Below, one piece after another: positions 14,513-59,461 of a stretch of DNA of 64,000 bases; the stretch's first letter is position 1; each line of letters opens with the position of its first letter. Where the stretch lies: assembly GCA_905210485.1 (NCBI GenBank), contig CAJLXA010000003.1, positions 6,152 to 70,151 of the forward strand, written 5' to 3'. The notes under the pieces are model-generated. The model was given only the letters and a program-made list of their open reading frames with translations, did not search any database and had not been told where the DNA came from. This DNA comes from an uncultured Eubacteriales bacterium (GTDB lineage: Bacteria; Bacillota; Clostridia; Oscillospirales; CAG-272). The position numbers were made by a program, and so were the translations under genes.

Positions 14513-14568
14513 TATATTGTAAATACTTGACGGTTCGGGCGACCGCAACCGCTCTATGAGGTGAATGT

Positions 14569-15888: not shown

Positions 15889-15906
15889 TCCGCAGTTATT
15901 GAAAAG

Positions 15907-15942
15907 CATCGGCAGGAGAGTGTTCTTCTGCCGATGTTTTTT
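15907..15942 (+). terminator. Rho-independent terminator
   Basis: CATCGGCAG/CTGCCGATG stem followed by a run of 6 T. Confidence 0.75.
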
Positions 15943-25691: not shown

Positions 25692-25706
25692 ATCATTATG
25701 GGAGCA

Positions 25707-27473: not shown

Positions 27474-27499
27474 AAGTGATCTCCTTTATTTTGATGATG

Positions 27500-36776: not shown

Positions 36777-36959
36777 AATAACCTCCCAACTTATCATTTT
36801 AATATCATTATACAAAATTTTAATAATATTTAGTGGATAAAGTGTAAATTTTTTATGATACAGATTGTTTTTTTACACACAATTCGCTAAAATGTATGTA
36901 AACACGCCTGAATATTCTGGAACGTGAAACCCCGATACCGAAACTTAAGGAAATATTCG

Positions 36960-41347: not shown

Positions 41348-41429
41348 GCGCGGCCAATCGTTTACGGGCACTATGCGGGCAGGGAATCGGAAAAATTTGA
41401 AAAAATATATAAAAAATATGTTTTTGCTC

Positions 41430-41458
41430 TTGCAAAACGCAAAAACATATGATATACT
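41430..41458 (+). promoter_or_regulatory. Sigma-A-type promoter of tRNA-Ser
   Basis: TTGCAA (41430-41435), 17-nt spacer, TATACT (41453-41458). Confidence 0.6.
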
Positions 41459-41480
41459 ATACAAGTACCGATTCCGATAC

Positions 41481-41569
41481 GGAGAGATATCGAAGTGGTC
41501 ATAACGGCCCTGACTCGAAATCAGGTAACCCGAAAGGGTGCGAGGGTTCGAATCCCTCTCTCTCCGCCA
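41481..41569 (+). tRNA. tRNA-Ser (anticodon CGA), with encoded CCA
   Basis: Acceptor stem GGAGAGA/TCTCTCC. Anticodon stem CCTGA/TCAGG with loop CTCGAAA. A long variable arm (TAACCCGAAAGGGTGC) is present. T-arm GAGGG-TTCGAAT-CCCTC. Discriminator G followed by CCA. Confidence 0.9.
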
Positions 41570-41571
41570 AA

Positions 41572-41596
41572 AAGCACGCAACAGCGTGCTTTTTTC
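41572..41596 (+). terminator. Rho-independent terminator after tRNA-Ser
   Basis: AAGCACGC/GCGTGCTT stem followed by a T-run. Confidence 0.75.
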
Positions 41597-41796
41597 ATAA
41601 GCGGCGATAAACAAAAGAATATACATGTTAAAATGAGCGAGCCGCCGCACAAGTCATTGCGTTTGTGCATTAAGAACATAAAATGTAAACTGCAGTTTGC
41701 ATTTTATAGGAATTTGCGCTTTGCACGGCGTTTGTTGTCATTTCGCCGGCATAATGCCGGCGCCGGAAATACACAGGAGAAAAGGAGATTACCAAA

Positions 41797-43984: not shown

Positions 43985-44565
43985 AGAAGTACTCCTTTAC
44001 ATAAACCGATCTTTACGGTTTCATTATCCCTATTATAATAGGAAGAATCGGGCCTGTCAAGAGGTATTCCGGCATTTTCGGATCTGCCGGCGACCTTTTT
44101 TGTATTCTTGATCGGAAATTGCGTTATTTGACAAAATTGTTGCTGAACGGTGTAAAGGCTGCGTGAAAATCACGTGAAAAATCATTTTTGTGCAACTTGC
44201 TACTTCGTAAAAAAAACGACCTGTTTTTTGTGCAAAATGACGTTGAAAAATAGCCTTTGCCGGCATGAAAATCACCCCTTCCGCACGATTGTTAAGTAAT
44301 TGATAATTACCCGATTGAAAAACAGGAAAGAATTCTATCTGTAATATGGCACTTTTTGTTACGTTTTATCGCGAAAATACAAGGAAAAACGCAAAATATT
44401 TAAGGGAGCAACATTCAAAACATGTTCGCAATTTAAAATTACTATCAAAATCACGAAGAACGGTCGCAAAGCGAACGTTAACAAAAAGTTCATATTTCTC
44501 ATAAAAAACACAAAGGAAATCGGAGAAACGCTTGTTATATTTTGGTTTTGCAGGCTTTTTTACTC

Positions 44566-44594
44566 TTGACAAGCAAGGCTTGCTGTGATATTAT
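44566..44594 (+). promoter_or_regulatory. Sigma-A-type promoter of the 7-gene cluster, with a palindromic spacer
   Basis: TTGACA (44566-44571), 17-nt spacer containing AGCAAG-G-CTTGCT, then TATTAT (44589-44594). It is followed by a roughly 115-nt structured leader. Confidence 0.55.
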
Positions 44595-44715
44595 TTTCAT
44601 ATGTTTAATGGCTATCTATGCCCATATTATACATAAATAGTCTATTAGGAATTCCGCTTTGGCGCTCTGCACTGTGCGCCACACGGTATTCTTCCGCAAA
44701 TTTTAGGAGGAGCAA

Positions 44716-47700
44716 TTGTCAATGAAAAAAGCAAAGTTCACCCGCGCGGCGGCGTTCTTACTTGCCATGATTATGGCGGTAGGTTCTCTTTTCACTCTCG
44801 CCTCCGCCTCTACGGAGTATGAGGACAACACGGGAAATACGGGTACGATCACGACACCGACGTATTCTTCCACCTCGTACGCCGCTTATCTGGCTGCACA
44901 GGCGGCGCTTCGCCGTCCGGCGCACTCCACGGCATCGGATGCCGAGATCATCAAGCAGAACAAAGGAAAGAACGAAATTTACCTTTCGCTCGGTGATTAT
45001 ACGGTCGACGCCGTTTCCACAAGAAGAGGCGTCTATCTCAACGGTATCAATGCCTCCGATCCTTCCGTAACGCTGGCGGGTTATGCTGCCGCCGTCGAGA
45101 ATCTTCCCGACGGGACAACGACGATCTATCTTCCCGAATCCGGCTCGGTTTCCTGGAAGATCAATGTGCCTGACGCAGGATTCTACGGTGTGCGTATCGA
45201 GTATTATCCTCTCGCTGTTGACGGTAAAATTTCTTCCGCCGAAAAGAAACTTCTGGTGGACGGGGAACTCCTTTTCAGCGAATGTACCTCACTTGCTTTT
45301 GACAAACTCTGGACCTATCAATACGTTTATCGGGAAAATGAAAACGGTGCTTACATTTTCGTTGCCGATGAGAACGGTACATATACCTTGTCTGTGAACG
45401 GCGCGGATGTGAAAGGCGAATATTACCTTGCCACGTTGGCGGATTCCCAGAACAAGACTTCGGCCGACGGTAAAAAATACGAGCGTGGATTTGCGCAGGA
45501 TATCAACGGGAACGATATGCGTTCGGATTGCGCGCAGAACCCCGCATGGCTTACATACACGCTTCAGGATCCGAACGGTCTTTATACCGAAGATCTTCAG
45601 ATTTATTTCAGTGCGGGCGAGCACGAACTGACGCTCGGCGGTATCCGCGAAGGATTGCTTGTCAAGTCCATCGTCCTTTTCCCGACCGAAGATCAGCTGA
45701 CGTATGCCGACTACAGCGATAAGGTGAAAGATCTTCCCGATCATTCCGGAGACGGAAGCATCATCAGGATCGAAGCGGAAAAACCCGACCTGATCTCCGA
45801 TTCTTCCGTTTATCCGACAAACGACCGCAGTTCTTCTCTCAACAGCCCGACGAATCCTTCTTCCCAGCTTCTCAACGTTATCGGTAAAGAAGGCTATTCG
45901 ACGGCAGGGCAGTGGGCTTCGTACACGTTCGCCGTGACCAAATCCGGTTACTATAATTTTGTATCCCGCTTCAAACAGACCACGCTTGAAGGTATGTTTG
46001 CGACCCGCGCTTTGAAACTCTGGTCTTCGGACGGTGAGTTCGGCCTTGTGGACGGAACCGCAACGGCGCCTTTCGCCGAGGCCAATAATATACGTTTCAA
46101 TTATGCCAACGCATGGCAGACGACAAAGTTCGGTTATTACGACGCCGATAACGCTTTCCATGAATTTACCTTCTATTTAAAGGAAGGCGTGGAATACCAC
46201 ATAGTTCTTGAGGTCAGCCTCGGCGATATGGCTACGGTTATTGATACCGTTGAAAATTCTTTGTCCGTTATCAACGATTGCTACCTTAATATATTGAAAC
46301 TCACCGGCACACAACCCGATGAATACCGTTCCTACAACTTCAACCGCGTCATGCCGAATACGGTGCGCAACCTGAAGAACCAGGCCGCCGTACTGACGGG
46401 CGTTGTTGACGAGATGAAACGTATCTGCGGCGTGTCCGGCTCCAACACCGCAACGCTGAATACCATTGCGATTCTGCTTGAGAAGATGGGCAGTGACGAA
46501 GATGAAATCGCGCCCAATCTCGGCAACCTCAAGTCTTACATCGGTAACCTCGGTACGTGGCTGAACACGGCAAAACAGCAAATGATCATGATTGACTATA
46601 TGACGGTACAGCCCACGGACGCAAAACTTCCCCGCGCCAATTCAAACTTCTTCCAGTCCGCATGGTTTGAAATCCGCGCATTTGTTTCCAGTTTCTTTAC
46701 CGATTATAACGCTATGGGCGTTACCTCGGAAATGTCCAAAGAAAACAGCATTGACGTATGGCTTGCCTACGGTCGTGACCAGTCGCAGATCTGGCGTAAC
46801 CTTATCGACGACGATTTCACTTCCGAAACCGGTATCCCTGTCACATTGAAACTGGTTACAGCCGGTACGCTTCTGCCTTCCGTTCTTTGCGGCAAAGGCC
46901 CTGACGTTTACATCGGCCTTGCGGCGGGCGACACTATCAACTATGCAATCCGCAGCGCCATCACCCCGCTCTCGCAATTTGAAGATCTGAATGATTTTGT
47001 TATCGGCCCCGACGCCGAAAATCCCCGTTTTGCCCCCTCCGCACTGGTTCCGCTTCAACTTTACGGCGAAACGTACGGTATTCCCGAAACTTCTTCCTTC
47101 TCCATGATGTTCATACGTAACGACATTCTGGAAAACCTCGGCATAGCGGTTCCCGAAACATGGGACGATCTTCTTGCCGCCGTTCCTGTTCTGCAGGCGA
47201 ACAACATGCAGATCGGTACTTCCTATGCTTCTCAGTTCAATATGTATCTCTATCAGCGCGGCGGCGGTCTGTGGCTCTATAACGGCACGGACGGCTATGC
47301 GTATGACGATGACTACGCCGGCGCACAGATCGGATACGGCACCAACACGGCGCTGGACGCTTTCGCCGATGTCTGCCGTTTGTATACCGACCTTTCTTTC
47401 CCGGTAACGTTTGACGCGGCCAACCGTTTCCGTACGGGCGAAGTTCCGCTTATGATTGCCGACTACGTGACTACTTACAACCAGTTGACGGTTTTTGCAA
47501 CCGAAATCGCCGGTATGTGGCAGTTCACGCTGATCCCCGGAACAGAGAAATCGATTTACGATGAAAACGGCGATCCTGTATATGACGTTGAGACCGGCCT
47601 GCAGAAAACCTATGTTGATCACACATCCATGACGACGGTGACGGCAACGGTTATGCTGCATAATGACAAACGCAGTGCAGAGGATACGCTCCACGCGTGG

Positions 47701-48090
47701 GAGTTCATGAAGTGGCAGGGCGGTGATAAGGCGCAGGCCACTTACGGTAACAAGATGGTTGCCCTTATCGGTCCTTCCGCCAAATATGCCAGTGCCAACA
47801 CGGTCGCTATCAGCAACCTTTCCTGGACGGCAACGGAACTTGCAAATATCAAGGCACAGCTTAACGAACTTGCCGCCATTGAAAACTACCCCGGTTCTTA
47901 TTATGTGGCCCGTTATGTACAGTTTGCCTTCTACAATGTCGTGAATGACGGCGCCGATCCTGCAGATGCTTTGCAGAGTTACATCAATACGATCAATAAA
48001 GAAATCACCCGTAAACGTCAGGAGTTTGAATTGCCGACTCTGGATATCGGTCAGACTCCCGAACAGGCCAGAAAAGCGGCCGGCAACTGA
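44716..48090 (+). CDS. Giant secreted ABC substrate-binding protein: signal peptide + two CBM-like beta-sandwich modules + helical spacer + family-1 SBP domain
   Basis: 1124 aa. Signal MSMKKAKFTRAAAFLLAMIMAVGSLFTLASAS with no Cys. CBM-like segments GSVSWKINVPDAGFYGVRIEYYPL and IRIEAEKPD...GQWASYTFAVTKSGYYNFVSRF. The C-terminal ~480 aa are SBP-like (IDVWLAYGRDQSQIWRNLIDDDF...GKGPDVYIGLAAGDT). Confidence 0.7.
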   Translation: MSMKKAKFTRAAAFLLAMIMAVGSLFTLASASTEYEDNTGNTGTITTPTYSSTSYAAYLAAQAALRRPAHSTASDAEIIKQNKGKNEIYLSLGDYTVDAVSTRRGVYLNGINASDPSVTLAGYAAAVENLPDGTTTIYLPESGSVSWKINVPDAGFYGVRIEYYPLAVDGKISSAEKKLLVDGELLFSECTSLAFDKLWTYQYVYRENENGAYIFVADENGTYTLSVNGADVKGEYYLATLADSQNKTSADGKKYERGFAQDINGNDMRSDCAQNPAWLTYTLQDPNGLYTEDLQIYFSAGEHELTLGGIREGLLVKSIVLFPTEDQLTYADYSDKVKDLPDHSGDGSIIRIEAEKPDLISDSSVYPTNDRSSSLNSPTNPSSQLLNVIGKEGYSTAGQWASYTFAVTKSGYYNFVSRFKQTTLEGMFATRALKLWSSDGEFGLVDGTATAPFAEANNIRFNYANAWQTTKFGYYDADNAFHEFTFYLKEGVEYHIVLEVSLGDMATVIDTVENSLSVINDCYLNILKLTGTQPDEYRSYNFNRVMPNTVRNLKNQAAVLTGVVDEMKRICGVSGSNTATLNTIAILLEKMGSDEDEIAPNLGNLKSYIGNLGTWLNTAKQQMIMIDYMTVQPTDAKLPRANSNFFQSAWFEIRAFVSSFFTDYNAMGVTSEMSKENSIDVWLAYGRDQSQIWRNLIDDDFTSETGIPVTLKLVTAGTLLPSVLCGKGPDVYIGLAAGDTINYAIRSAITPLSQFEDLNDFVIGPDAENPRFAPSALVPLQLYGETYGIPETSSFSMMFIRNDILENLGIAVPETWDDLLAAVPVLQANNMQIGTSYASQFNMYLYQRGGGLWLYNGTDGYAYDDDYAGAQIGYGTNTALDAFADVCRLYTDLSFPVTFDAANRFRTGEVPLMIADYVTTYNQLTVFATEIAGMWQFTLIPGTEKSIYDENGDPVYDVETGLQKTYVDHTSMTTVTATVMLHNDKRSAEDTLHAWEFMKWQGGDKAQATYGNKMVALIGPSAKYASANTVAISNLSWTATELANIKAQLNELAAIENYPGSYYVARYVQFAFYNVVNDGADPADALQSYINTINKEITRKRQEFELPTLDIGQTPEQARKAAGN

Positions 48091-48131
48091 CGGCCGCCTC
48101 TGCAAGCAAAAACTATTGAAGGAGATAAGTC

Positions 48132-49079
48132 ATGCCACAAATAAATGAGACAAAGCGCCCGGTATCCCGCAAGGATATGACGAGAGCGCAGTGGACATGG
48201 AAAGAAATAAAGAACAACAAAGTCGCGTATCTGATGGTGGCGCCGTTCTTTATTCTCTTCGTTGTCTTCACTGTATTCCCGGTTATTTTGTCTATGTTCC
48301 TGAGCCTTACGGAATTCAACCTTTTGGAAATGCCGAAATGGGTTGGTCTGCAGAACTATATCCGGCTCTTCCTTGACGACGATATTTTTATCATTGCATG
48401 TAAAAACACACTGATCTTCGCGGCGATCACGGGACCCGTTTCCTACATCATGTCGTTTCTCGTCGCATGGTTCATTAACGAACTTCCTCCCAAGATCCGT
48501 GCGGTTGTTACGCTGGTCTTCTACGCACCGTCCATTTCCGGCTCGGTGTATATGGTTTGGAAGATTCTGTTCTCCAGTGACTCTTACGGCTGGGTCAACG
48601 GTCTTCTTATTAAGTATAACATTATTGACAGCCCAATCCTGTGGTTTGAAAATGCCAGTTACGTTATGCCGCTCTGTATTGTGGTGGCATTGTGGACATC
48701 GCTCGGTACGGCGTTCCTGTCTTTTATCGCCGGTCTTCAGACCGTGGACAGAAGCCTTTACGAAGCGGCGGCCGTGGACGGTATCAAAAACCGTTGGCAG
48801 GAAGTGTGGTACATAACGCTTCCGAAGATGCGTCCGCAGTTGATGTTCGGTGCCGTTCTTTCCATTACAAACGCGTTTGGTTTCGGTGCGGTTGTTACGG
48901 CGCTTGCCGGTTTCCCGTCCGTCGACTATGCGGCATGGACGATCATGCACCATCTTGACGACTACGGCGGACAACGTTACGAAGTCGGCTATGCTTCGGC
49001 AATCGCCGTATTCCTGTTCGTAATCATGATCGGCAGTAACATACTGATCAAGAAGATACTTTCAAAGGTGGGACAATAA
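48132..49079 (+). CDS. ABC sugar-type permease (MalF/LplB-like), pair 1
   Basis: 315 aa with 6 TM segments. EAA loop SLYEAAAVDGIKNRWQEVWYITLP. Confidence 0.88.
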   Translation: MPQINETKRPVSRKDMTRAQWTWKEIKNNKVAYLMVAPFFILFVVFTVFPVILSMFLSLTEFNLLEMPKWVGLQNYIRLFLDDDIFIIACKNTLIFAAITGPVSYIMSFLVAWFINELPPKIRAVVTLVFYAPSISGSVYMVWKILFSSDSYGWVNGLLIKYNIIDSPILWFENASYVMPLCIVVALWTSLGTAFLSFIAGLQTVDRSLYEAAAVDGIKNRWQEVWYITLPKMRPQLMFGAVLSITNAFGFGAVVTALAGFPSVDYAAWTIMHHLDDYGGQRYEVGYASAIAVFLFVIMIGSNILIKKILSKVGQ

Positions 49080-49080
49080 T

Positions 49081-49968
49081 ATGGCGAGACAAAAATTGCA
49101 GAAATTAAGAACCCGCAATCATCGCGTTGTCCTTAACCGTTCCTACGGCGGCGACGCCGGCATTACGTTTTTCCTCGTCATCATGGGCGCTTTCATGTTC
49201 CTGCCGATGCTTTACCTCATTCTGCAGTCGCTGAAGCCTCTTGATGAACTCTGGATTTTTCCGCCGAGATTCTATGTTGTGAATCCGACGCTCCAGAATT
49301 TCGCCGACCTGTTCTCCCTTATGAACGACTCGTGGGTACCGTTTTCGCGTTACATATTCAACACCGTTTTCATTACGGTGTGCGGTACTTTCGGCAACCT
49401 GATCATCGGATCGCTCGGCGCTTATGCGTTGGCAAAGATGAAATTCCCGGGACGTCAGTTCATCTTCCAGATTATCGTGCTTTCGCTGATGTTCCATCAG
49501 ACGGTAAACCAGGTGGCGCACTTCATTATCCTCGGCGCGCTCGGTTGGGTCGACACCTATCTTGCCATCATCGTTCCGGCCCTGGCAACGACGATGGGCG
49601 TTTACCTGATGAAGCAGTTTATGGAATCTTCGGTTTCCGACGCGGTTCTCGAAAGCGCGCGTCTTGACGGCGCAAGCGAATTCCGGATCTTCCTTACCAT
49701 CGCCATGCCGATGGTAAAGCCGGCCTGGCTGACGCTGATCATCGAATCGTTCCGCGGCCTTTGGAACACCGGCGCTTCGATTTACATTCATTCGGAACAG
49801 TTGAAAACTTTCAACTATGCCATTACGCAGATCGTTGCCGGCGGTATTGCCCGTACCGGTGCGTCGGCGGCCGCTTCCGTGGTCATGATGCTCGTTCCGA
49901 TTACCGTATTTGTTATTAACCAGAGTAAAGTCATCGAAACGATGGGTACTTCGGGTATGAAAGATTAA
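49081..49968 (+). CDS. ABC sugar-type permease (MalG/LplC-like), pair 1
   Basis: 295 aa with 6 TM segments. EAA loop AVLESARLDGASEFRIFLTIAMP. It starts 1 nt after the preceding stop. Confidence 0.88.
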   Translation: MARQKLQKLRTRNHRVVLNRSYGGDAGITFFLVIMGAFMFLPMLYLILQSLKPLDELWIFPPRFYVVNPTLQNFADLFSLMNDSWVPFSRYIFNTVFITVCGTFGNLIIGSLGAYALAKMKFPGRQFIFQIIVLSLMFHQTVNQVAHFIILGALGWVDTYLAIIVPALATTMGVYLMKQFMESSVSDAVLESARLDGASEFRIFLTIAMPMVKPAWLTLIIESFRGLWNTGASIYIHSEQLKTFNYAITQIVAGGIARTGASAAASVVMMLVPITVFVINQSKVIETMGTSGMKD

Positions 49969-49984
49969 AAAGGAGAGAAGAGAA

Positions 49985-52171
49985 ATGAAAAAGAAAATTT
50001 CCGCATTGTTGCTTTTTCTCCTTTGTGCGGTGATGCTTTTCGGAACGGTATCTTCCGTTGCCGTAGAGCCTTACCAGACATACACGTATTCCATCGACGG
50101 CAAGGCTCTGTATTCTCCGGCGGCGTATACGCCCGCTATGACGGTTGATTACAAGTATATGGGACTTGCCAACAACTTTCAGTCGGTTGACGATCTTTTC
50201 GTAGGTCCGGATAACCGAGTATATCTTGTTGATGCCGGTGCCAGCTCCGTTTACGTGCTGTCTCCCTATTATCAAATTGAGAAGAAATCCGACGGCAAAG
50301 ATTTTGTGCTGAATACGTTTTATAACGGGACTTCGCAGGATAAACTCAACAGTCCTAAAGGCGTCTTTGTCAACGACGAATGTATTTATGTATGCGACAC
50401 CGAAAATTACCGCATTGTTGTGTTTGATCTTGACGGTAATTTCCTGCGCATCATTCCTCGTCCGCAGTCCTCGCTTTTCGGAACCGATTCCACGTATAAA
50501 CCCGTTGCTATGGCTGTTGACCAGTACGGACGTCTTTTCGTGATTTCCTCAACAACCTATCAGGGCGTCATTGTTATGACCGAAGACGGAACATTTACCG
50601 GCTTTATCGGCGCTCAATCGGTTACATACTCCATTGTGGATATTATCTGGCGCCGTTTCCAGACAAAGGAACAGCGCGAGAATTCGGTGCAGTATGTTTC
50701 TACCGAATATAATAACATCACGATCGACGACGACGGATTCATCTACGTTACGATTCAACAGCAGGATCTTGAAAAACAGCAGGCTTCTCTGGAAGCGAAA
50801 GACTATGAGTATGCCCCTGTCAAAAAACTGAACTCCTCCGGCTCCGAGATCATGAAGCGTAACGGTTTCTTCGGACCGGGCGGTGACGTTGACGTGCAGA
50901 ATTCCACGACCGAAAGCGGCGTACCTACAGGTCCGTCCATTATTGAGGACGTGGCTATCGGCCCGGAACAAACCTATTCGATCATTGATACCAAGCGTAA
51001 TAAGATTTTTACGTATGACCAGAACGGCAACCTGCTCTTCGCGTTCGGCGACAGCGGTATTCAGCTCGGCAATACGGCAAAACTGAATGCCATCACCTAT
51101 CAGAAATACGGTGACGCAGGAAAAGACGGAACGGTTAAGCATAAACTTCTGACGCTGGACAGTTCGACAAAAATGATTACGGTCTTCACATGTACGGAAT
51201 ACGGCAATCTTCTTTATTCCGCACTGAATTATGAAAACAATCGTGATTATGTCAATTCGGTCATAGCGTGGAAGAGCGTTCTTGCCCGCAACAATAACTT
51301 TGACGCGGCGTATATCGGCGTCGGTAAGGCTTATTACCGTGAGGGCGAGTACGAGCAGGCTATGGAATATTTCAAAGCCGCTTACGATACCGAAAACTAT
51401 TCCAATGCGTACTCCGAAGTACGTAAAGAGTGGGTTTCCAAGTACCTTATCGTGATTCCGATTGTGGTCATCGTTGTGTTGTTCGCGCTTCTGAAACTGG
51501 GGGCTTATGCAAACAAAGTCAATGTGGCCACAGCGACGAAAGGCGGCAAACGCACTTTCAAAGAGGAACTTCTGTATTCTTTCCATCTGAAGTACCACCC
51601 GTTTGACGGCTACTGGGATCTGAAACATGAAAAACGCGGCTCGGTTCGCGCGGCGTTGGTGATCCTCGTTGTGACGATCCTGTGCTTCTACTATCAATCG
51701 GTCGGCACCGGCTATCTTCTGAATCCGGAGGGAACCTATTCCACAATCTGGGTACAGCTCATTGCCGTAATAATCCCGCTTTTGTTGTGGGTCGTCGCCA
51801 ACTGGTGTCTTACCACATTGTTCGACGGTGAGGGTTCGCTGAAGGACGTATTTGTCGCTTCGTGCTACAGTCTGGCGCCTCTTCCGCTTCTTCTCATCCT
51901 CTCGACGGCATTGTCCAACATCGTTACGAGCGCTGAAGCGCAGATCGTGCAGTTCCTGATTGTCCTCGGCTATATCTGGGTGGGATTCCTCCTGTTCTTC
52001 GGTACCATGGTGACGCACGACTATTCGCTCGGTAAAAACTTCATTACCGTCATCGGAACGATTGTCGGTATGTGTATTATTATGTTCGTAGCCGTTCTGT
52101 TCTCAAGCCTTCTCGGAAAGATGATATCTTTCGTGTCCAACATCATCGTTGAAATCAACTATCGTCTATAA
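49985..52171 (+). CDS. Signal peptide + six-bladed NHL-repeat propeller + TPR + Yip1-family membrane domain fusion
   Basis: 728 aa. NHL blades are visible (LNSPKGVFVNDECIYVCDTENYRIVVFDLDGNF; YGRLFVISSTTYQGVIVMTEDGTF; IIDTKRNKIFTYDQNGNLLFAFG). A TPR-like segment follows (GVGKAYYREGEYEQAMEYFKAAYD), then a TM segment, then HPFDGYWDLKHEKRGS and 5 TM segments (Yip1-like). Confidence 0.65.
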   Translation: MKKKISALLLFLLCAVMLFGTVSSVAVEPYQTYTYSIDGKALYSPAAYTPAMTVDYKYMGLANNFQSVDDLFVGPDNRVYLVDAGASSVYVLSPYYQIEKKSDGKDFVLNTFYNGTSQDKLNSPKGVFVNDECIYVCDTENYRIVVFDLDGNFLRIIPRPQSSLFGTDSTYKPVAMAVDQYGRLFVISSTTYQGVIVMTEDGTFTGFIGAQSVTYSIVDIIWRRFQTKEQRENSVQYVSTEYNNITIDDDGFIYVTIQQQDLEKQQASLEAKDYEYAPVKKLNSSGSEIMKRNGFFGPGGDVDVQNSTTESGVPTGPSIIEDVAIGPEQTYSIIDTKRNKIFTYDQNGNLLFAFGDSGIQLGNTAKLNAITYQKYGDAGKDGTVKHKLLTLDSSTKMITVFTCTEYGNLLYSALNYENNRDYVNSVIAWKSVLARNNNFDAAYIGVGKAYYREGEYEQAMEYFKAAYDTENYSNAYSEVRKEWVSKYLIVIPIVVIVVLFALLKLGAYANKVNVATATKGGKRTFKEELLYSFHLKYHPFDGYWDLKHEKRGSVRAALVILVVTILCFYYQSVGTGYLLNPEGTYSTIWVQLIAVIIPLLLWVVANWCLTTLFDGEGSLKDVFVASCYSLAPLPLLLILSTALSNIVTSAEAQIVQFLIVLGYIWVGFLLFFGTMVTHDYSLGKNFITVIGTIVGMCIIMFVAVLFSSLLGKMISFVSNIIVEINYRL

Positions 52172-52196
52172 CGGTAAACGCATAGGAGTGAATAAA

Positions 52197-55100
52197 ATGA
52201 AAATGAAAAATATATTGTCTATGCTTCTTGCCGTCGTCATGGTGTTTGCTTGCGTAAGCGGACTTTTCGGTACCGTTTCCGTGAAAGCGGCCGATGATAC
52301 GGACGATGGCGAAGAAGATCTGAAGCCTTATGAAGTGGCGGCGGCCGCGGCATTGCAAAATGCCTATACGTCGATCAGCGAGAAAGTTCGCCGCGAAAAT
52401 ACTGCCGGATATACCCGCCTTGTGGCAACATCCGCGGACGGCAGTTATGAGCTTCACGCCAATGTGTACACCGGTGAAGTGTACTATAAAAACACAAAAA
52501 CCGGTCAGTTCCTGTCCACAAACCCGGCTTCGCTTTCCAGTGTGGCAACAGCGCAGAAGCCGTTGGCTTTGTCACAGCTCAGCGTCAAGTATATGGATCT
52601 CACCGGCACTACCGCTACTATGGTCAGTTTTACGGAGGCGGCACAGCGCGGTCAGGTTACCATCAAACAGATTCGTAACGGTATACGCGTCGAATATACC
52701 ATCGGCCGTACCGATACGAACTATCTGTTGCCCGGCTGGATTACCGAGGACCGTTTTGAATCCCTGATTCTGACGCCTATCTGCAACTACATTCTTCAGA
52801 TCATTTCCGACGAAGCATATGAAGATGTAGATATTGAAGTTCTTCAGAACAAATATGCGGAGTATGTAGCCGAGTATGAAGAAAATCCCAAATTGCACGC
52901 GGAAAGCTATGCCGATCAGTACGCATTGCTTTCTGTGGGTGACGAATACGGCGTGGATCTTACCGATTCCACGTACTCCAAAGCCGCCAATATCGCGTAC
53001 TTCCAGTACATGAGAATCCGCGCAACGTATGCGTTGCAGGATCCGAATGACCTGGCGGACGGCAGCGACGCAAAGATCGAGCTTCTTGCCAAGTATAAAA
53101 TCTGCTCGCAGGTCGATAAGGATACGGGTAAGTTTTATGTGATTTATACGGTTGACGACACGTTGCCCGATAAATCGAAAAAACTTTACGAATCGTATAT
53201 CAAAACCTACTGTGCCGAAACGTATACGTACGACGACAAGGCGTACGATACCGAAGAAACTGGTTATGTTTCAACGGACGAGGCGCCGGCGTTCTTCCGT
53301 ATGGCATTGGAATATTCCATTGCCGATGACGGAACGCTTTCGGTTCGCCTGCCCGCGAACAGTATCCGCTATGACAGCACGAACTTCACCCTTCTCAGCG
53401 TGGACGTTCTGCCGTTCTTCGGAGCCGGTAATGTCAATGACGAGGGATATGCTTTCTATCCGGACGGAAGCGGCGCGCTCCTTGAGTTTTCCGACCTCCG
53501 TTCTCAGGTGTCTGCCGGTTCGCTGACAAACCGTGTATACGGCGAAGATTATGTTTACTACAAAATTTCCGCCAAACACCAGGAATCCATTCGTATGCCT
53601 GTGTACGGTATTGTCGATACGTCGAAGAGAACGACGCAGATTACCGAACTGGACTATGACCGCGTCACCGGCGAAATTATTGAGACAAAGAAAGATATTG
53701 TCACTTCCGAAACGACAGGATTTGTCGCTTATCTTACGGAAGGCGAAGCACTTGCCTCGCTGACAGTGGCTTTCGGCGGTTCGAGCGCACATAACTATAC
53801 GTCGATCTATCCGACGTATACACCGACGCCAACCGACTCTTATAAACTCGTCGACGCTATCTCGGTCAGCACGGACGCGACCGAATGGACAGTGGCATCC
53901 AAGAAAAAATATACCGATAATTTCACGATCCAGATCCAGATGCTGAGTGATACGGCGAAAGCCACCGAAGCCGGAATCACGAATTATTACGAAGCTTCGT
54001 GGATCGGCATGGCTCAGGCTTATCGTGACTTTATATGGAAAGGGAAGAATTCGTTTACTTCCGCCGATGTCTCGGACTCTCTGCCTTTGTACATCGAATC
54101 GTTCGGTACGGTAAAGGCGACCGACAAAATCCTGTCGATTCCTGTCACCGTCGACAAAGCGCTGACCACGTTTGACGATGTTATCACCATGTATAAGGAA
54201 CTTTCCGCATATAAAACCGATTGTGAAGCCAAAGCGGCCGAATATGTGCAAAAAGCCGCGGCCGCACGCAACGAAAACAATATCATATTGGCGGAAGAAT
54301 ATGAAAAGACGGCAGCGGAGTACGCCGAAAAAGCCGCCGCATCTTCCGATATGTCCAATATCAAGTTCAAGTTGACTGGTTTTGCAAACGGCGGTATGAC
54401 CGCTACATATCCGAACAAGGTAAAATGGATGAAGTCCGTAGGCGGCGCTCGCGGCTTTGAAAAACTGCTCAACTATGCCGCAAACGATACAAACGGCAAA
54501 CTCGGCATTTATCCCGAATTTGAATTTTCGTATGTAGCGAACAAAAAGTCTTTTGACGGCATTTCGCTGAAAGCGGACGCCGCACGTTCGGTCGACAACC
54601 GCTATGCAAGCCAGGCTGTGTATGACTGTGTGTATCAGACATTCACGACCTACTTCCATGTGCTGATGTCTCCCGACGCCATCGCCAAGCATTACGCGAA
54701 ATTCACGAAATCCTATAGCAAGAATAAAGGTGTGACCGGTATTTCGGCTTCCTCGCTCGGCAGCGACCTCAACTCTTCGTTCTCGGAAGACAATCCGCAG
54801 AACCGTGAAGACTCCAAGTCGATTCTGTCCGACGTACTGGCCGATATGAAAGAAGAATACGGTTCGGTCATGATTTCCGGCGGCAATGCTTATACATTGA
54901 AATTCGCCGATCATATCATTGACATTCCGCTTGACAGTTCCAACTACAAGTACTCGTCGAGGACAATACCGTTCATCGGTATGGTGCTTCACGGCTACGT
55001 GAACTATGCGGGCGGCGCTACCAACGAAGCAGGCGACAGTAAGTATCAGCTTCTGCGCTCGATCGAAAACGGCGCGTCTCTCTATTACATTCTTTCGTAT

Positions 55101-56537
55101 GCCAATACCACGATTCTGAAAGACGACCTTCTTCTTAACACGTACTATTCCATTCGTTACGATATCTGGGTCGACGACCTTGCCCGTCAGTATCACACGC
55201 TGAACAGTGCCATCGGTTCGCTTCAGACGTATCTCATTCAAAACGAGATTTCCGTTATTGCGGAACGTATTCCCGACAGCGCGGAACTTACCCGGTACCG
55301 CAAACTCCTGACTGACAATGCGGTTCTGGCATTGCAGACGGCCATTACCGACGCAAGAGACAATGCATACCGTGACATGCGCTTCCAGAACACCATGAAG
55401 GTTCTTTTTGAAAACAAGGATCTGATCGGTAATGCACAGAATCTGTACGCTGAAAAACTGGCGGCTGCCAAACTGCTGTATGACGCCATCAACGACGAAA
55501 CGCTGGACAGTGAAAACGGCGGAACGTGGAAACAACTTCGCGACGATGTAGCCGCATATCAGAGCGCGGTGGACGAAGCCGGCGATAATGCAACAGCCGA
55601 GCAACTGTTACGGCTTGAAGCCGCTAAACTGCGTCTCTCCTACAACATTGATCTTGCTACTCAGGCATATAGCGCCTACAATACCGATACGGCAAACGGC
55701 GTTTACAATGAAGAGTTGCTGATCGGTGCGGCAGAAGAAATCGTAACGTCTTCGTGGGGAACTCTTTCCGATTCGGAAAAAGCGCTCCTCAAGAATATGT
55801 ACGACGTCTATAAGGCGGGCGGCACATGGGCGAACCAGATCGGCAAAACGGTGACGGTTTCCGTCGACCGCAATGCGGTTCTGAACAGCGTGAAGGCCGC
55901 TTATGACGCACAGACCAAATATTTCACCGAGGCCGCTCTTCTTGATTTCCACACGGCATTGGCCGGTGCGATTGATGAAGCCATCGCGAGCTATTATGCC
56001 GAATTCGTAAACGCTTATATCGAAACCCTGACGTATACGTCGCAGAACGGTCAACCGGTTTATGAAACGTTGACGACATATGAATATGCCGCGCTTCGCG
56101 ACGCTCTTGTACGTTTCTATGTGGCGAAGACCGAAGAAGCAACGCAGGCAAATGTCGAAGCGTTTGTTAAGAACTTCCTGAATAATGCCAACGGCAACAG
56201 CGAAGAACTGACAAATGTTCAGAAGTCGATTATCCGTGATACAATCGCATATCTTACCGGCGCAGGTTTTGCCGGCGATAAAGTGGTGGATCTTACCGCC
56301 ATCGAAGTAACGCCGGACATCATCTTCACCGAAGAAGACGCGACCGACGCCGAATATGTCGGCACACCGTATACCGTGAATGACGATTCGGTAGTGATGG
56401 TGATCTACGAAAGCGCCGATAAAACGCAGCGCAAAGGATTTATCCTGAACTATAACGTATTTGATGTGACGGTTCGTTATAACGGTACGGTCTACACTAT
56501 TTCGTCCTACGGTTTTGCAACCGTGAATCTTGATTAA
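52197..56537 (+). CDS. 1446-aa N-terminally anchored extracytoplasmic protein, DUF5696-like (uncharacterised)
   Basis: AGGAGTG lies upstream of ATG 52197. Signal/anchor MKMKNILSMLLAVVMVFACVSGLFGTVSVKA. I recognise no characterised catalytic motif. Conserved-looking blocks are GYAFYPDGSGALLEF, LTGFANGGM, IYPEFEF and IPFIGMVLHGYVNYAGG. The DUF5696 label comes from memory of similar neighbourhoods and is not verified. Confidence 0.5.
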   Translation: MKMKNILSMLLAVVMVFACVSGLFGTVSVKAADDTDDGEEDLKPYEVAAAAALQNAYTSISEKVRRENTAGYTRLVATSADGSYELHANVYTGEVYYKNTKTGQFLSTNPASLSSVATAQKPLALSQLSVKYMDLTGTTATMVSFTEAAQRGQVTIKQIRNGIRVEYTIGRTDTNYLLPGWITEDRFESLILTPICNYILQIISDEAYEDVDIEVLQNKYAEYVAEYEENPKLHAESYADQYALLSVGDEYGVDLTDSTYSKAANIAYFQYMRIRATYALQDPNDLADGSDAKIELLAKYKICSQVDKDTGKFYVIYTVDDTLPDKSKKLYESYIKTYCAETYTYDDKAYDTEETGYVSTDEAPAFFRMALEYSIADDGTLSVRLPANSIRYDSTNFTLLSVDVLPFFGAGNVNDEGYAFYPDGSGALLEFSDLRSQVSAGSLTNRVYGEDYVYYKISAKHQESIRMPVYGIVDTSKRTTQITELDYDRVTGEIIETKKDIVTSETTGFVAYLTEGEALASLTVAFGGSSAHNYTSIYPTYTPTPTDSYKLVDAISVSTDATEWTVASKKKYTDNFTIQIQMLSDTAKATEAGITNYYEASWIGMAQAYRDFIWKGKNSFTSADVSDSLPLYIESFGTVKATDKILSIPVTVDKALTTFDDVITMYKELSAYKTDCEAKAAEYVQKAAAARNENNIILAEEYEKTAAEYAEKAAASSDMSNIKFKLTGFANGGMTATYPNKVKWMKSVGGARGFEKLLNYAANDTNGKLGIYPEFEFSYVANKKSFDGISLKADAARSVDNRYASQAVYDCVYQTFTTYFHVLMSPDAIAKHYAKFTKSYSKNKGVTGISASSLGSDLNSSFSEDNPQNREDSKSILSDVLADMKEEYGSVMISGGNAYTLKFADHIIDIPLDSSNYKYSSRTIPFIGMVLHGYVNYAGGATNEAGDSKYQLLRSIENGASLYYILSYANTTILKDDLLLNTYYSIRYDIWVDDLARQYHTLNSAIGSLQTYLIQNEISVIAERIPDSAELTRYRKLLTDNAVLALQTAITDARDNAYRDMRFQNTMKVLFENKDLIGNAQNLYAEKLAAAKLLYDAINDETLDSENGGTWKQLRDDVAAYQSAVDEAGDNATAEQLLRLEAAKLRLSYNIDLATQAYSAYNTDTANGVYNEELLIGAAEEIVTSSWGTLSDSEKALLKNMYDVYKAGGTWANQIGKTVTVSVDRNAVLNSVKAAYDAQTKYFTEAALLDFHTALAGAIDEAIASYYAEFVNAYIETLTYTSQNGQPVYETLTTYEYAALRDALVRFYVAKTEEATQANVEAFVKNFLNNANGNSEELTNVQKSIIRDTIAYLTGAGFAGDKVVDLTAIEVTPDIIFTEEDATDAEYVGTPYTVNDDSVVMVIYESADKTQRKGFILNYNVFDVTVRYNGTVYTISSYGFATVNLD

Positions 56538-56553
56538 AGGAGGGAACTGAATA

Positions 56554-57522
56554 ATGAAAAATACAACTATGGCTATTCCTTCCGTCAAGAAGCATAAGAA
56601 GGCCTCGCTCGACGCGCGCAAAGCGCGCGCGGGCTGGTTCTTCGTCCTGCCTTTCGTAATCGGTCTTGTTCTGATTTATCTGCCGATCGTTATCGACTCG
56701 ATCTGGTTCAGTTTTAACACAATCAAACCGATTCCGGTGCGTGAAGGCGGCGGTTATCAGCTGGTTTTTGAAGGTTGGAACTTCTATCGCTCCGCTTTGG
56801 TCGGCGATATGTCCACAACGTATCTGCAAAAACTTCTTTCCGGTATTCAGCAACTGGTTCTGGATGTTCCCGCGATCGTCATTTTCTCTCTCTTCATCGC
56901 GGTTATTCTGAATCAGAAGATGGTCGGACGCGCCGCATTCCGCGCAATCTTCTTCATACCGGTTATTATCGCTACCGGCCTTATGGAAACGATCAATGCC
57001 GCGGATACGCTGGCATCTTCCATGGAGAACGGTACGTCGATGGGTGAAGAGACCAGTGCGACAACGCAGATCATCTCCACAATGGACGTGGAACGCTTGT
57101 TTGAAAACATGAAAGTCGGTAAAGAACTGGTTATATACATCACGAACCTTGTTAACAGTATTTATAATATCGTTAACCGTTCGGGCGTACAGATGCTGAT
57201 CTTCCTTGCCGGTCTTCAGTCCATTTCCCCCGCGATTTACGAAGCCTGTGAAATTGAAGGCGCGACCGCATGGGAAACTTTCTGGAAGATTACTTTCCCG
57301 ATGATAAGTCCGATGATACTTGTCAACGCTATTTACACGATTATCGACTCTTTCACAACCAACACGAACGTTGTTATGTCGTACATTTCCTCTGAAGTAT
57401 ACAACAGCAGTCAGGGTGTGGCGACAGCAATGTCATGGATATACTTCGTTGTCATAATGGCCATTATCGGTCTTGTGACGCTGATATGTTCCAGTTTCGT
57501 GTTCTACCAGAAACGTAATTAA
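56554..57522 (+). CDS. ABC sugar-type permease (MalF-like), pair 2
   Basis: 322 aa. EAA loop IYEACEIEGATAWETFWKITFP. An extracytoplasmic insert is present (NAADTLASSMENGTSMGEETSATTQ...). Confidence 0.85.
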   Translation: MKNTTMAIPSVKKHKKASLDARKARAGWFFVLPFVIGLVLIYLPIVIDSIWFSFNTIKPIPVREGGGYQLVFEGWNFYRSALVGDMSTTYLQKLLSGIQQLVLDVPAIVIFSLFIAVILNQKMVGRAAFRAIFFIPVIIATGLMETINAADTLASSMENGTSMGEETSATTQIISTMDVERLFENMKVGKELVIYITNLVNSIYNIVNRSGVQMLIFLAGLQSISPAIYEACEIEGATAWETFWKITFPMISPMILVNAIYTIIDSFTTNTNVVMSYISSEVYNSSQGVATAMSWIYFVVIMAIIGLVTLICSSFVFYQKRN

Positions 57523-57535
57523 GGAGGCGGAAAAG

Positions 57536-58624
57536 ATGGATGCACAAAAAATGAAAGCTCCGAAAAAAGTCTATAATAAAGACGGCTACATCGTTTCCTT
57601 TGAAGATAAGGTTCCGTTCTGGGAAAGACTGAAGGGAAAAGTATTCTCCACATACTTCCTTACCAACGTTGTCTGGTACATTTTCCGTCTTGTACTGATG
57701 ATCGGTATTTCTTTCGTGATTCTGTACCCGTTTATCTCCAAGATCGCGGGTTCGTTCATGGCTCCCGAAGATTTCAAAGACGCGACGGTCAATATCATTC
57801 CGAAGCACTTCACGATCGGTACGTATAAGGCTATCTTCCTTGAGAATCATTATATGTCCGCCTTTGTCAACACTTTGCTTCTGTCGTTACTCTGCGCATT
57901 GCTGCAAACGTTTATTTGCTGTCTTGTCGGGTACGGCCTTGCCAAGTTCAAATTCAAAGGTAACAAACTGATTCTTCTCATGGTCGTTCTGACCATGATT
58001 ATCCCGCACGGAACGCTCCGCCTTTCCATGTTCCTGCATTTTGAATATTTCAACCCCGGCAGTATTTCCGGCTGGAATGTTCCCGGTATCCTGACGCCGT
58101 TTATCTGGTTTATCAATCTCTTCCGTTCGACACCGTTGACGGGCGTGTCTCTGACGGATACCTATTGGCCGCTGATTCTTCTTTCGCTGTTCGGTCTCGG
58201 CTTCAAGAACGGTCTTTACATCTTCATGATGCGGCAGTTCTTCCATGGCGTGCCCGATGAACTTGAGGAATCTGCGTACGTGGACGGTTCCACGACGATG
58301 CGTACGTTTTTCCAGATCATCATTCCGCTTTCGATACCGATGATGATCACGATCTTCCTGTTCGCGTTTTCGTGGCAGTGGACGGATAACTTCTACACGG
58401 AACTGTTCTTCATTTCGGGCAGTGACATCATTCTGATGCCTGACCTTTTGGAATCGGTTCCGCCGACCCTGTTGGCAAACAAACCGTTTACCGACTGGTC
58501 GCTGTATGAAACGGCCATTCGCAATACGTGCGGTCTTATGATCATTCTGCCGCTTGTCATTCTCTATCTCTTCTGCCAGAAGTACCTGGTGCAGGGTATT
58601 GAACGCAGCGGTATCGTAGGCTGA
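57536..58624 (+). CDS. ABC sugar-type permease (MalG-like), pair 2
   Basis: 362 aa. EAA loop LEESAYVDGSTTMRTFFQIIIP. It has a 50-aa cytoplasmic N-terminal extension. Confidence 0.85.
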   Translation: MDAQKMKAPKKVYNKDGYIVSFEDKVPFWERLKGKVFSTYFLTNVVWYIFRLVLMIGISFVILYPFISKIAGSFMAPEDFKDATVNIIPKHFTIGTYKAIFLENHYMSAFVNTLLLSLLCALLQTFICCLVGYGLAKFKFKGNKLILLMVVLTMIIPHGTLRLSMFLHFEYFNPGSISGWNVPGILTPFIWFINLFRSTPLTGVSLTDTYWPLILLSLFGLGFKNGLYIFMMRQFFHGVPDELEESAYVDGSTTMRTFFQIIIPLSIPMMITIFLFAFSWQWTDNFYTELFFISGSDIILMPDLLESVPPTLLANKPFTDWSLYETAIRNTCGLMIILPLVILYLFCQKYLVQGIERSGIVG

Positions 58625-58651
58625 CCTTTTGTAAAGGATCGTCTACTCCAC

Positions 58652-58688
58652 AAAAACACCGAAGAACTTTTGGTCTTCGGTGTTTTTC
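58652..58688 (+). terminator. Rho-independent terminator closing the 7-gene cluster
   Basis: 10-bp stem ACACCGAAGA/TCTTCGGTGT with an A-run before it and a T-run after it. Confidence 0.8.
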
Positions 58689-59310: not shown

Positions 59311-59340
59311 TTGACAAAACGTGACGAAACGTGGTATAAT
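59311..59340 (+). promoter_or_regulatory. Sigma-A-type promoter (extended -10)
   Basis: TTGACA (59311-59316), 18-nt spacer, TGgTATAAT (59332-59340). Confidence 0.6.
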
Positions 59341-59360: not shown

Positions 59361-59461
59361 ATCTTTAAGTCACGGTACAGAGATGCCGGCAAGATTTATA
59401 CATAGGGTGTCCTTTACGGGAGTATGTTGGGATTTTGCCGCACGCGCAAAATCCTTTTTTT
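59361..59461 (+). promoter_or_regulatory. PyrR-type transcription attenuator (binding hairpin + intrinsic terminator)
   Basis: Hairpin AUCUU-UAAGUCA-CGG-UACAGAGAUG-CCG-GC-AAGAU (59361-59395) has a CAGAGA-containing loop resembling the PyrR binding loop. Terminator GGATTTTGC/GCAAAATCC (59430-59454) is followed by a run of 7 T. The element lies directly upstream of a uracil-permease-like gene. Confidence 0.55.

Follow-up and report, generated by a model that had tools for sequence, protein, structure and literature searches.

Clostridia of the gut (Oscillospiraceae, Lachnospiraceae, and relatives) are major degraders of fiber and mucin whose glycan uptake machinery is known in much less detail than the Sus systems of Bacteroidetes. 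The closest described transport systems are the carbohydrate uptake transporter 1 (CUT1) ATP-binding cassette (ABC) importers of the MalFGK2/UgpAEC-like kind that use an orphan ATPase, such as MsmX in Bacillus subtilis and MsmK in streptococci. In a 64-kb stretch of DNA from an uncultured Eubacteriales bacterium (the window, meaning the whole stretch that was analyzed), an operon of seven plus-strand genes, designated g1 to g7, was examined. It resembles these importers in having a family-1 binding domain, MalF/MalG permeases with EAA loops, and no ATPase gene, and its Paenibacillus orthologue adjoins a UgpC/MsmX-type gene. In contrast to them, it has two permease pairs (g2/g3 and g6/g7) and one binding protein; this substrate-binding protein (SBP; g1) is ~1120 amino acids (aa) long, is not a lipoprotein, and is fused to two modules with a carbohydrate-binding module (CBM) fold and a helical domain; and NHL-TPR-Yip1 (g4) and DUF5696 (g5) subunits are added between the pairs. 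The operon is read here, with moderate confidence, as an apparatus for the capture, processing, and import of glycan that is built on CUT1-type (MalFG-like) ABC importer parts and uses a shared ATPase.

Gram-positive polysaccharide utilization loci (gpPULs) combine a co-localized transporter, a regulator, and a polysaccharide-degrading enzyme. The module shares with gpPULs and with the Sus-like systems of Bacteroidetes the placement of transport genes beside glycan-binding modules and a protein with a glycoside hydrolase (GH) fold, and other lineages embed it with GH43 and a histidine kinase/response regulator (HK/RR), with GH20/GH3, or with GH115/AraC. In the window it has no regulator and no carbohydrate-active enzyme (CAZyme) recognizable by sequence, whereas the Butyrivibrio version has HK/RR and GH43. 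The same seven-gene core with changing accessory enzymes is closer to the conserved core of the Sus type than to the idiosyncratic gpPULs. For g4, a Yip1-family protein encoded with an ABC transporter is also found in YknWXYZ of B. subtilis, where YknW was reported to modulate how the YknXYZ transporter is assembled (PMC4887032); no other functional precedent for bacterial Yip1 proteins was found. The transporter YknXYZ belongs to the MacB-type exporters and includes a membrane fusion protein, whereas the partners in the module are type I importer permeases, and, unlike in YknW, the Yip1 domain of the module comes with an extracellular NHL-TPR region to which it is either fused or coupled. PknD of Mycobacterium tuberculosis also places a six-blade NHL propeller outside the membrane on a single transmembrane (TM) helix; g4 lacks the kinase domain and has TPR and Yip1 instead. 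The literature searched held no relevant report on Yip1, NHL, and ABC together, and no counterpart was found there for two translocator pairs with one giant nonlipidated CBM-SBP, for an obligatory NHL-TPR-Yip1 protein, or for an obligatory DUF5696 protein of GH129 fold.

The seven open reading frames (ORFs) are closely packed between 44716 (or 44722) and 58624 and are flanked by a near-consensus promoter and a strong terminator (Table 1). Intergenic gaps from g1 to g7 are 41, 1, 16, 25, 16, and 13 nucleotides (nt). The ORFs, coordinates, and gaps given in an initial annotation of this DNA were reproduced exactly, and the promoter and terminator that it had proposed were confirmed by scan score and folding energy, respectively. 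The site at 44566-44594 ranks third-best in the promoter scan and, judged from its sequence, probably acts as the promoter of the operon. In orthologous loci a near-consensus TTGAC(A/T)...TATAAT was found 90 to 130 nt 5' of g1, together with a strong GGAGGA ribosome-binding site. The terminator has a folding energy of -19 kcal/mol (z = -5.74), and none of 200 shuffled sequences folded equally well; it was not in the pattern-scan output and is evident on reading the sequence. The mechanically called ORF of g1 starts with TTG at 44716 (1124 aa), and an ATG at 44722 (1122 aa) stands at a better distance from the AGGAGG ribosome-binding site (44705-44710). The ATG is the likelier start, in line with the length of the public gene call (1122 aa) and with the MKK at the beginning of homologues.

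An Rfam search gave no match for a leader RNA or riboswitch 5' of g1, and the upstream regions of orthologous loci shared no k-mer other than the promoter and the ribosome-binding site. Immediately 3' of the -10 box of the promoter of g1, at 44606-44628, lies a partly palindromic motif, ATGGCnnTnTATGCCCAT. This candidate operator (ATGGC...TATGCCC) was seen again, similarly placed, in only about 6 to 9 of 66 orthologous upstream regions (including L007, L009, L010, L018, and L030), and the motif may be a lineage-specific operator for some repressor. About 490 nt of AT-rich DNA (44070-44560), with no notable ORF and no Rfam match, separates the g1 promoter from that of a divergent ROK-family kinase gene. 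Gaps of 0.5 to 0.7 kb 5' of g1 were also present in several orthologous loci for which gene calls were checked (L002, L087, and L088).

In a scan of one genome per species, DUF5696 relatives were found in at least 564 genomes. Synteny was followed in the best 80 loci, from 80 species-level genomes (metagenome-assembled genomes of Clostridia), ~69 of which had enough flanking DNA. In all ~69 complete loci the order and strand of g1 to g7 are identical, with median gaps of 38, 1, 14, 21, 17, and 14 nt; the seven genes are thus a conserved unit. Median identity to the window proteins is 74% for g2 and g3, 57 to 60% for g6/g7, 52% for g4, 41% for g1, and 37% for g5. Cultured carriers were identified by tblastn of annotated plasmids and chromids. 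Plasmid pNP243 of Butyrivibrio fibrisolvens D1 (module at WAA20_RS20510-RS20550) carries HK/RR, GH43, a 977-aa SBP, and two permeases, followed by genes annotated "NHL repeat-containing protein," "YIP1 family protein," and "DUF5696 domain-containing protein" and two further permeases; directly after pair 2 it has two lipoprotein SBPs of 501 and 536 aa (L091, 16003-19433), so pair 2 may have its own binding proteins in some lineages. Paenibacillus cellulosilyticus KACC 14175 (HUB94_RS00490-RS00525) carries ugpC, a 986-aa SBP, two permeases, a 719-aa "YIP1 family protein," DUF5696, and two permeases. By BLAST, all seven proteins are one-to-one orthologous with those of both strains. The names "YIP1 family protein" and "DUF5696 domain-containing protein," which the initial annotation had placed beside sugar ABC genes in Clostridia and Paenibacillus, appear literally in these annotated records.

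The accessory genes of the module vary. In a distant metagenomic clade, where NHL and Yip1 are separate, translationally coupled genes, the module sits between GHL10 plus GH20 on one side and GH3, a NagB-like gene, and an acetyltransferase on the other. A Lachnospiraceae variant adjoins AraC, GH115, and an esterase. As the accessory enzymes differ (none, GH43, GH20 plus GH3, or GH115), the module is probably a generic chassis of varying specificity. The flanks in the window's clade are housekeeping genes that vary between genomes (NifS/U, MnmA, the shikimate pathway, a Liv system, YajC, and pyrP), from which it follows that the module is self-contained.

The two transmembrane domains expected of a CUT1 importer, MalF/MalG-type with an EAA loop, are present twice, as g2/g3 and g6/g7. 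BPD_transp_1 was found in g2, g3, g6, and g7, with g3 slightly below the Pfam cutoff, and NCBIfam gave UgpA/UgpE/MalF/MalG matches (UgpE/MalG for g3); the four EAA loops quoted by the initial annotation are verbatim in the translations. Between TM3 and TM4, g6 has an extracellular insert of ~100 aa; the orthologue of g6 (permC) is 42% identical in Butyrivibrio and 32% in Paenibacillus. The annotation had taken the pairs for a duplication. They are only remotely related, with g2 and g6 alignable over just 58 aa, g3 and g7 sharing 24% identity, and values of 24 to 34% over partial lengths overall; thus, they do not stem from a recent duplication and are distinct permease pairs of ancient divergence, as judged by sequence comparison.

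Such divergent pairs would also fit two independent systems that travel together, an ordinary sugar importer (g1-g2-g3) and a separate unit (g4-g5-g6-g7); the two lipoprotein SBPs of Butyrivibrio could serve pair 2 alone, and the sequence of g1 by itself does not demand the other proteins. We consider this improbable: no split or partial version was seen in the ~69 complete loci or in the two cultured genera, which belong to different classes; the gaps are 1 to 38 nt, with a single near-consensus promoter upstream and a terminator only after g7; and g1 is an atypical, nonlipidated SBP that needs something to retain it.

No ORF with both Walker A and LSGGQ was found in the entire window, which bears out the initial report that the cluster lacks an ATPase, and no sugar-type ATPase was seen in the Clostridia loci. 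ABC ATPases lying 4 kb 3' in some of the loci examined were considered as partners and rejected, as they are LivG/LivF of an amino acid system. In Paenibacillus, ugpC (MsmX-type), with Walker A and LSGGQ, lies 37 nt upstream of the module on the same strand. This supports an ATPase supplied in trans from elsewhere, as the annotation had proposed in suggesting a borrowed one, and in the window organism a MalK/MsmX-type subunit is presumably supplied in this way.

The C terminus of g1 (aa ~625 to 1124) was correctly recognized at the outset as a family-1 SBP. As a single sequence it matched PDB entry 5ysb (Lin1841) in phmmer with an E value of 8e-8, and the homologue profile matched 5ysb at 1.5e-25, followed by dozens of sugar SBPs. 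Homologues of g1 bear SBP_bac_1/SBP_bac_8 (PF01547/PF13416), and g1 of the window itself has no Pfam match. Residues 30-650 were modeled with AlphaFold2 (AF2) from an alignment of 57 homologues, with a predicted local distance difference test score (pLDDT) of 91.7. The model consists of two beta-sandwiches followed by a helical domain, and in Foldseek the sandwiches match the stand-alone CBM35/CBM6 modules 2w1w, 2cdp, 2vzr, and 5fui (TMt, 0.6 to 0.68; probability, 1.0). The N-terminal 630 aa had no Pfam match even at an E value of 10, and one distant homologue bears PF25275. The earlier description of g1 as CBM-bearing therefore holds at the level of fold and not of a Pfam sequence match. The consensus of the helical domain is strongly kept across the 57 homologues, and this domain may serve in docking. 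A lipobox-like cysteine was present in only 1 of 75 g1 homologues and LPxTG in none of the 75; in the Butyrivibrio locus, the ordinary SBPs have lipobox cysteines and the giant SBP does not. Thus, g1 is a secreted, nonlipidated protein in which a family-1 sugar-binding domain is preceded by two CBM6/35-fold modules and a helical domain. As g1 and g5 have neither lipobox nor LPxTG anchors, they would need a noncovalent tether in a monoderm cell, for which the extracellular NHL-TPR part of g4 and the helical domain of g1 are obvious candidates.

The NHL, TPR, and Yip1 parts that had been proposed for g4 were all recovered. Yip1 (PF04893) was matched at aa 538-703 with an E value of 1.3e-14 (54.9 bits; cutoff, 28.6), and a single NHL repeat was matched in Pfam (21.3 bits; cutoff, 20). 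A profile of 35 orthologues matched six-blade propellers in the PDB that are Pizza designs derived from PknD, over five to six stretches (E value, 2.6e-31), as well as the NHL proteins TRIM71, Brat, and PknD and TPR proteins (E value, 5e-25). The domains are arranged as a six-blade NHL propeller (aa ~30 to 400), TPR (~400 to 475), a TM helix (488-506), a conserved cytoplasmic motif, and Yip1 (538-705). By hydropathy, a signal peptide and the 488-506 helix are followed by a basic loop and by five hydrophobic Yip1 segments at 556-705; this topology, with one TM helix after the signal peptide, places the propeller and TPR outside the cell. In other lineages NHL and YIP1 are separate genes with overlapping stop and start codons. 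Identity among g4 proteins is 47 to 73%, above that of g1 and g5.

The propeller also invites a reading of the system as primarily a sensing or regulatory device, in which NHL would detect a surface or environmental ligand and gate both transporters via Yip1 and a cytoplasmic motif. Among the matches of the NHL domain are PknD and designs based on its sensor domain, the cytoplasmic motif HPFDG(F/Y)WDLKHEKRGS (HPFDGFWDLKHEKRGS) is near-invariant and is retained in Butyrivibrio, and the window locus has no transcriptional regulator. This is very unlikely to be the function of the system: Pfam found no kinase, helix-turn-helix, or other output domain in g4, and the characterized role of a bacterial Yip1 protein is in modulating assembly, not in signaling (PMC4887032). 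Sensing is, moreover, compatible with the glycan uptake reading and does not exclude it.

Pfam identified g5 as DUF5696 (PF18952) with an E value of 1.3e-117 (394 bits; cutoff, 25.6), so the initial label "DUF5696-like" was right. The annotation had expected permease, Yip1, NHL, and DUF5696 domains from a scan with profile hidden Markov models (HMMs), all of which were seen (g3 below the cutoff), and an SBP domain in g1, which was not. It had also stated that DUF5696 has no assigned function, and the literature searched held no mention of DUF5696 or PF18952. All source-given names among the 375 close homologues of g5 are "hypothetical protein." A DUF5696 profile run over 1.84 billion cluster representatives matched 5,460 clusters (50% identity) at an E value of ≤1e-3, and a distant GH20-linked DUF5696 protein, used as a query for cultured relatives, found only nine proteins. 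The sole PDB match in sequence and profile searches, to interferon-gamma, was judged spurious. In Pfam, 34 homologues gave DUF5696 alone at an E value of ≤1, and four very long homologues (2112 to 2545 aa) had no anchoring or catalytic addition.

Residues 40-1060 of g5 were modeled with AF2 from 80 sequences (pLDDT, 89.8; predicted TM score [pTM], 0.81), and the best Foldseek matches were all glycosidases. The first was GH129 enzyme ZgGH129 (5opq/8rzk; E value, 1.7e-19; TMt, 0.59 to 0.62), followed by GH129 enzyme NagBb (5wzr; 1e-14), a GH31 sulfoquinovosidase (5aeg; 3e-10), GH101 endo-alpha-GalNAc-ases (1e-9), and then GH66 and GH36. In the predicted model, the core of g5 thus shares the beta-sandwich plus (beta/alpha)8 fold of GH129/GH31/GH101 glycosidases, and for this reason a candidate processing enzyme is present in the operon. 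Compared with GH129 (the alpha-N-acetylgalactosaminidase NagBb of Bifidobacterium bifidum and the 3,6-anhydro-D-galactosidase ZgGH129 of Zobellia), GH101, and GH31, g5 has ~9 to 10% identity to the structurally matched proteins and no HMM-level similarity, and the acidic position at strand 4, as placed by secondary structure, is not conserved. It further has an extra N-terminal domain, a variable helical region, and a C-terminal domain, and it is obligately tied to ABC permeases and Yip1. The statement that the cluster has no recognizable glycoside hydrolase therefore remains correct by sequence and fails by fold, and the view of g5 as a protein without relatives in characterized families was overturned by the predicted fold. 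At the level of fold only, this links one of the two large proteins to characterized enzyme families and so goes part of the way against the initial interpretation, and no known pathway comes with it.

Contrary to the annotation, no sign of anchoring was seen in g5. The protein begins with a signal that has AXA-type sites and lacks both a C-terminal TM helix and LPxTG, and its homologues resemble those of g1 in lacking lipobox and LPxTG anchors. Lengths of g5 homologues range from 757 to 2545 aa; the region of aa ~1050 to 1350 is missing in forms of 757 to 1100 aa and enlarged in the longest, where it brings no additional Pfam domain. The C-terminal end of the model consists of long helices, and this region might form a helical stalk across the cell wall. 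Y1404, N1418, and Y1419 in the C-terminal domain are kept even in a broad alignment.

Taken as a glycan uptake apparatus, the module might work as follows. The CBM-like modules of g1 would hold polymeric glycan at the surface, g5 would trim it or at least bind glycan, and the binding domain of g1 would pass products to pair 1, its conserved neighbor. Pair 2 would import a second product or work with g5 or, as in Butyrivibrio, with extra binding proteins, and an MsmX/UgpC-type ATPase, shared and encoded elsewhere, would energize both pairs in trans. By analogy with YknW, g4 would be a membrane-embedded organizer that retains the unanchored g1 and g5, controls assembly, or both. A kinase, for instance the neighboring ROK enzyme, might then phosphorylate the imported hexose.

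Several points weigh against this reading. We infer the role of g4 and the purpose of two permease pairs. Internal promoters may be present in the operon. As the annotation had stated, there is no regulator in the window operon; the loci of its clade have none either, and no other CAZyme was found in the operon or in those loci; such a housekeeping setting without regulator or CAZyme is unusual for a polysaccharide utilization locus. PDB sequence and profile searches and Pfam gave no sequence-level link between DUF5696 and any GH family. Finally, enzymes of the GH31/GH129 type carry an acidic nucleophile where barrel strand 4 ends. In g5, where this position was assigned by the order of secondary structure elements and not by superposition, D857 follows strand 4; among close homologues, 82% keep this residue and ~10% have another in its place, and elsewhere the position is R/Q/S/K/N/T/A, including in Butyrivibrio, Paenibacillus, and the GH20-linked clade. 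Accordingly, g5 may be noncatalytic or may have a different active site. D857 and D913 as a catalytic pair were dropped, as D857 is replaced in ~10% of close and in all distant homologues, and the motif [DE]-F-[DE]-F that follows strand 3 was not universal either.

The state of strand 4 bears on whether DUF5696 is instead a glycosidase-derived, noncatalytic subunit, for glycan binding or for delivery to pair 2, in a module that imports oligosaccharides made elsewhere. Besides the nonconserved nucleophile position, only D423, D451, N943, and E957 are invariant across the family, and two of these four are in the beta-sandwich and not the barrel. Unrelated accessory GHs that differ by lineage (GH43, GH20/GH3, or GH115) would fit a generic structural role, and the window has one binding protein for two permease pairs. 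On the other hand, ~60 positions are invariant in the window's clade, many of them polar or aromatic (E634, D800, R870, H906, H932, and E957), and such barrel-loop residues typically mark an active site or a ligand site; the nearest folds are all active glycosidases; and g1 bears CBM-like modules of the polymer type although the window operon offers no other candidate enzyme. On balance, a noncatalytic DUF5696 in an importer of ready-made oligosaccharides is unlikely.

The housekeeping neighborhood, the constitutive-looking strong promoter, and the lack of catabolic genes in the window's clade could likewise be accommodated if the module exported or assembled a cell surface glycan or wall polymer, and GH-like proteins participate in exopolysaccharide processing in other systems. 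That the module works in this direction is extremely unlikely, since type I importers are characterized by MalF/MalG-type permeases with EAA loops together with a family-1 binding protein, related loci contain catabolic GH20, GH3, NagB-like, and GH43 genes, and no glycosyltransferase is conserved alongside the module.

A more far-reaching form of the glycan uptake reading is one stoichiometric envelope supercomplex of all seven proteins, in which NHL-TPR-Yip1 would hold the CBM-SBP and the GH129-fold DUF5696 over two ABC translocators, with polymer capture, cleavage, and import physically coupled. This would be a Gram-positive counterpart of Sus, a chassis re-tooled for each glycan across thousands of Bacillota. 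It is put forward tentatively and is somewhat doubtful; as part of it, and going by the model, DUF5696 would be a new glycoside hydrolase family or a GH-derived pseudo-enzyme. From the initial interpretation as a whole, the conserved unit and the explanation for the missing ATPase have held, while anchoring of g5, duplication of the permeases, and a DUF5696 without relatives have not.

TABLE 1 Features of the seven-gene operon and the adjacent kinase gene (positions in the window)
Feature	Coordinates	Strand	Basis and remarks
ROK-family glucokinase-like sugar kinase, no helix-turn-helix	43019..43984	-	Pfam; divergent from the operon and outside it
Promoter-like site, TTGACA-17-TATTAT with TG extension	44566..44594	+	11/12 match; ~120 nt 5' of g1
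g1, secreted giant binding protein	44716..48090 (likelier from 44722)	+	Signal of the signal peptidase I (SPase-I) type, no lipobox
g1, two CBM6/CBM35-fold beta-sandwiches	45103..46218	+	AF2 and Foldseek; aa ~130-325 and ~350-500, borders approximate
g1, conserved helical domain	46228..46575	+	DSSP of model; aa ~505-620, joins CBM-like domains to binding domain
g1, C-terminal family-1 (cluster D type) sugar-binding domain	46588..48087	+	phmmer/profile vs PDB
g2, MalF/UgpA-type permease, pair 1, EAA loop EAAAVDGIKNRW	48132..49079	+	Pfam, NCBIfam
g3, MalG/UgpE-type permease, pair 1, EAA loop ESARLDGASEFR	49081..49968	+	Pfam, NCBIfam
g4, signal peptide, NHL, TPR, TM, and Yip1	49985..52171	+	Pfam, PDB profile, hydropathy, alignment
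g5, secreted 1446-aa DUF5696 protein	52197..56537	+	Pfam
g5, core, beta-sandwich and (beta/alpha)8 barrel	53292..55226	+	AF2 and Foldseek; aa ~366-1010
g5, length-variable region, predicted helical	55344..56246	+	Coverage profile; aa ~1050-1350
g5, conserved C-terminal domain, ~95 aa	56247..56534	+	Kept in most homologues
g6, MalF-type permease, pair 2, EAA loop EACEIEGATAWE	56554..57522	+	Pfam, NCBIfam, hydropathy
g7, MalG-type permease, pair 2, EAA loop ESAYVDGSTTMR, N-terminal extension	57536..58624	+	Pfam, NCBIfam
Intrinsic terminator, 14-bp stem then U-run	58652..58688	+	Sequence and folding

The kinase gene upstream of the operon matched ROK in Pfam with an E value of 5e-63 and scored 239.8 bits against TIGR00744 (cutoff, 260). 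Its promoter, on the minus strand at 44060-44032, matches the consensus at 12 of 12 positions. Of the 92 loci, 21 have a ROK gene on the opposite strand within the retrieved upstream flank and another 2 have one on the same strand, and its adjacency is not uniform, with MnmA intervening in orthologous locus L003. The ROK kinase is a possible functional partner of the operon.

Downstream, a perfect sigma-70 promoter (TTGACA-18-TATAAT, 59311-59340) precedes a Xan_ur_permease gene, the start of which is probably at 59523 rather than 59424, with a leader of ~180 nt containing a terminator hairpin at 59429-59455. This leader, considered as a riboswitch-like element adjoining the operon, turned out to be the PyrR site of the neighboring permease (RF00515, 59358-59461; 41.5 bits; gathering score, 54; E value, 1e-4). 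As the leader matches RF00515, below the gathering score, the gene probably encodes a PyrR-attenuated uracil permease. A match to viral frameshift element RF01074 inside g2 (48887-48916, minus strand; 30.6 bits against 40; E value, 0.049) is almost certainly due to chance.

Elsewhere in the window, a gene of the tyrosine recombinase/phage integrase family (35745-36815, minus strand) lies in an ORF-poor stretch at ~32.3 to 37 kb and may represent an integrated element or a Xer-type recombinase. Two ORFs, at 14554-15909 (minus strand, 450 aa) and 25698-27479 (plus strand, 593 aa), had no Pfam match at an E value of ≤1e-5, and a third, at 40544-41650 (minus strand, 367 aa), had none at ≤1e-3.

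The module is widespread, with a DUF5696 relative in at least 564 species-level genomes, has a fixed architecture in the best-matching loci, and includes two uncharacterized subunits; B. fibrisolvens D1 and P. cellulosilyticus KACC 14175 are cultured and potentially tractable hosts. An active DUF5696 would be the founding member of a new glycoside hydrolase family related by fold to GH129/GH31/GH101. If the proteins assemble, they would form the first Yip1-organized ABC importer complex with two translocators, and bacterial Yip1 and NHL proteins would gain a concrete function. The module may thus be a new kind of Gram-positive carbohydrate uptake machine, kept in many gut and soil Firmicutes.

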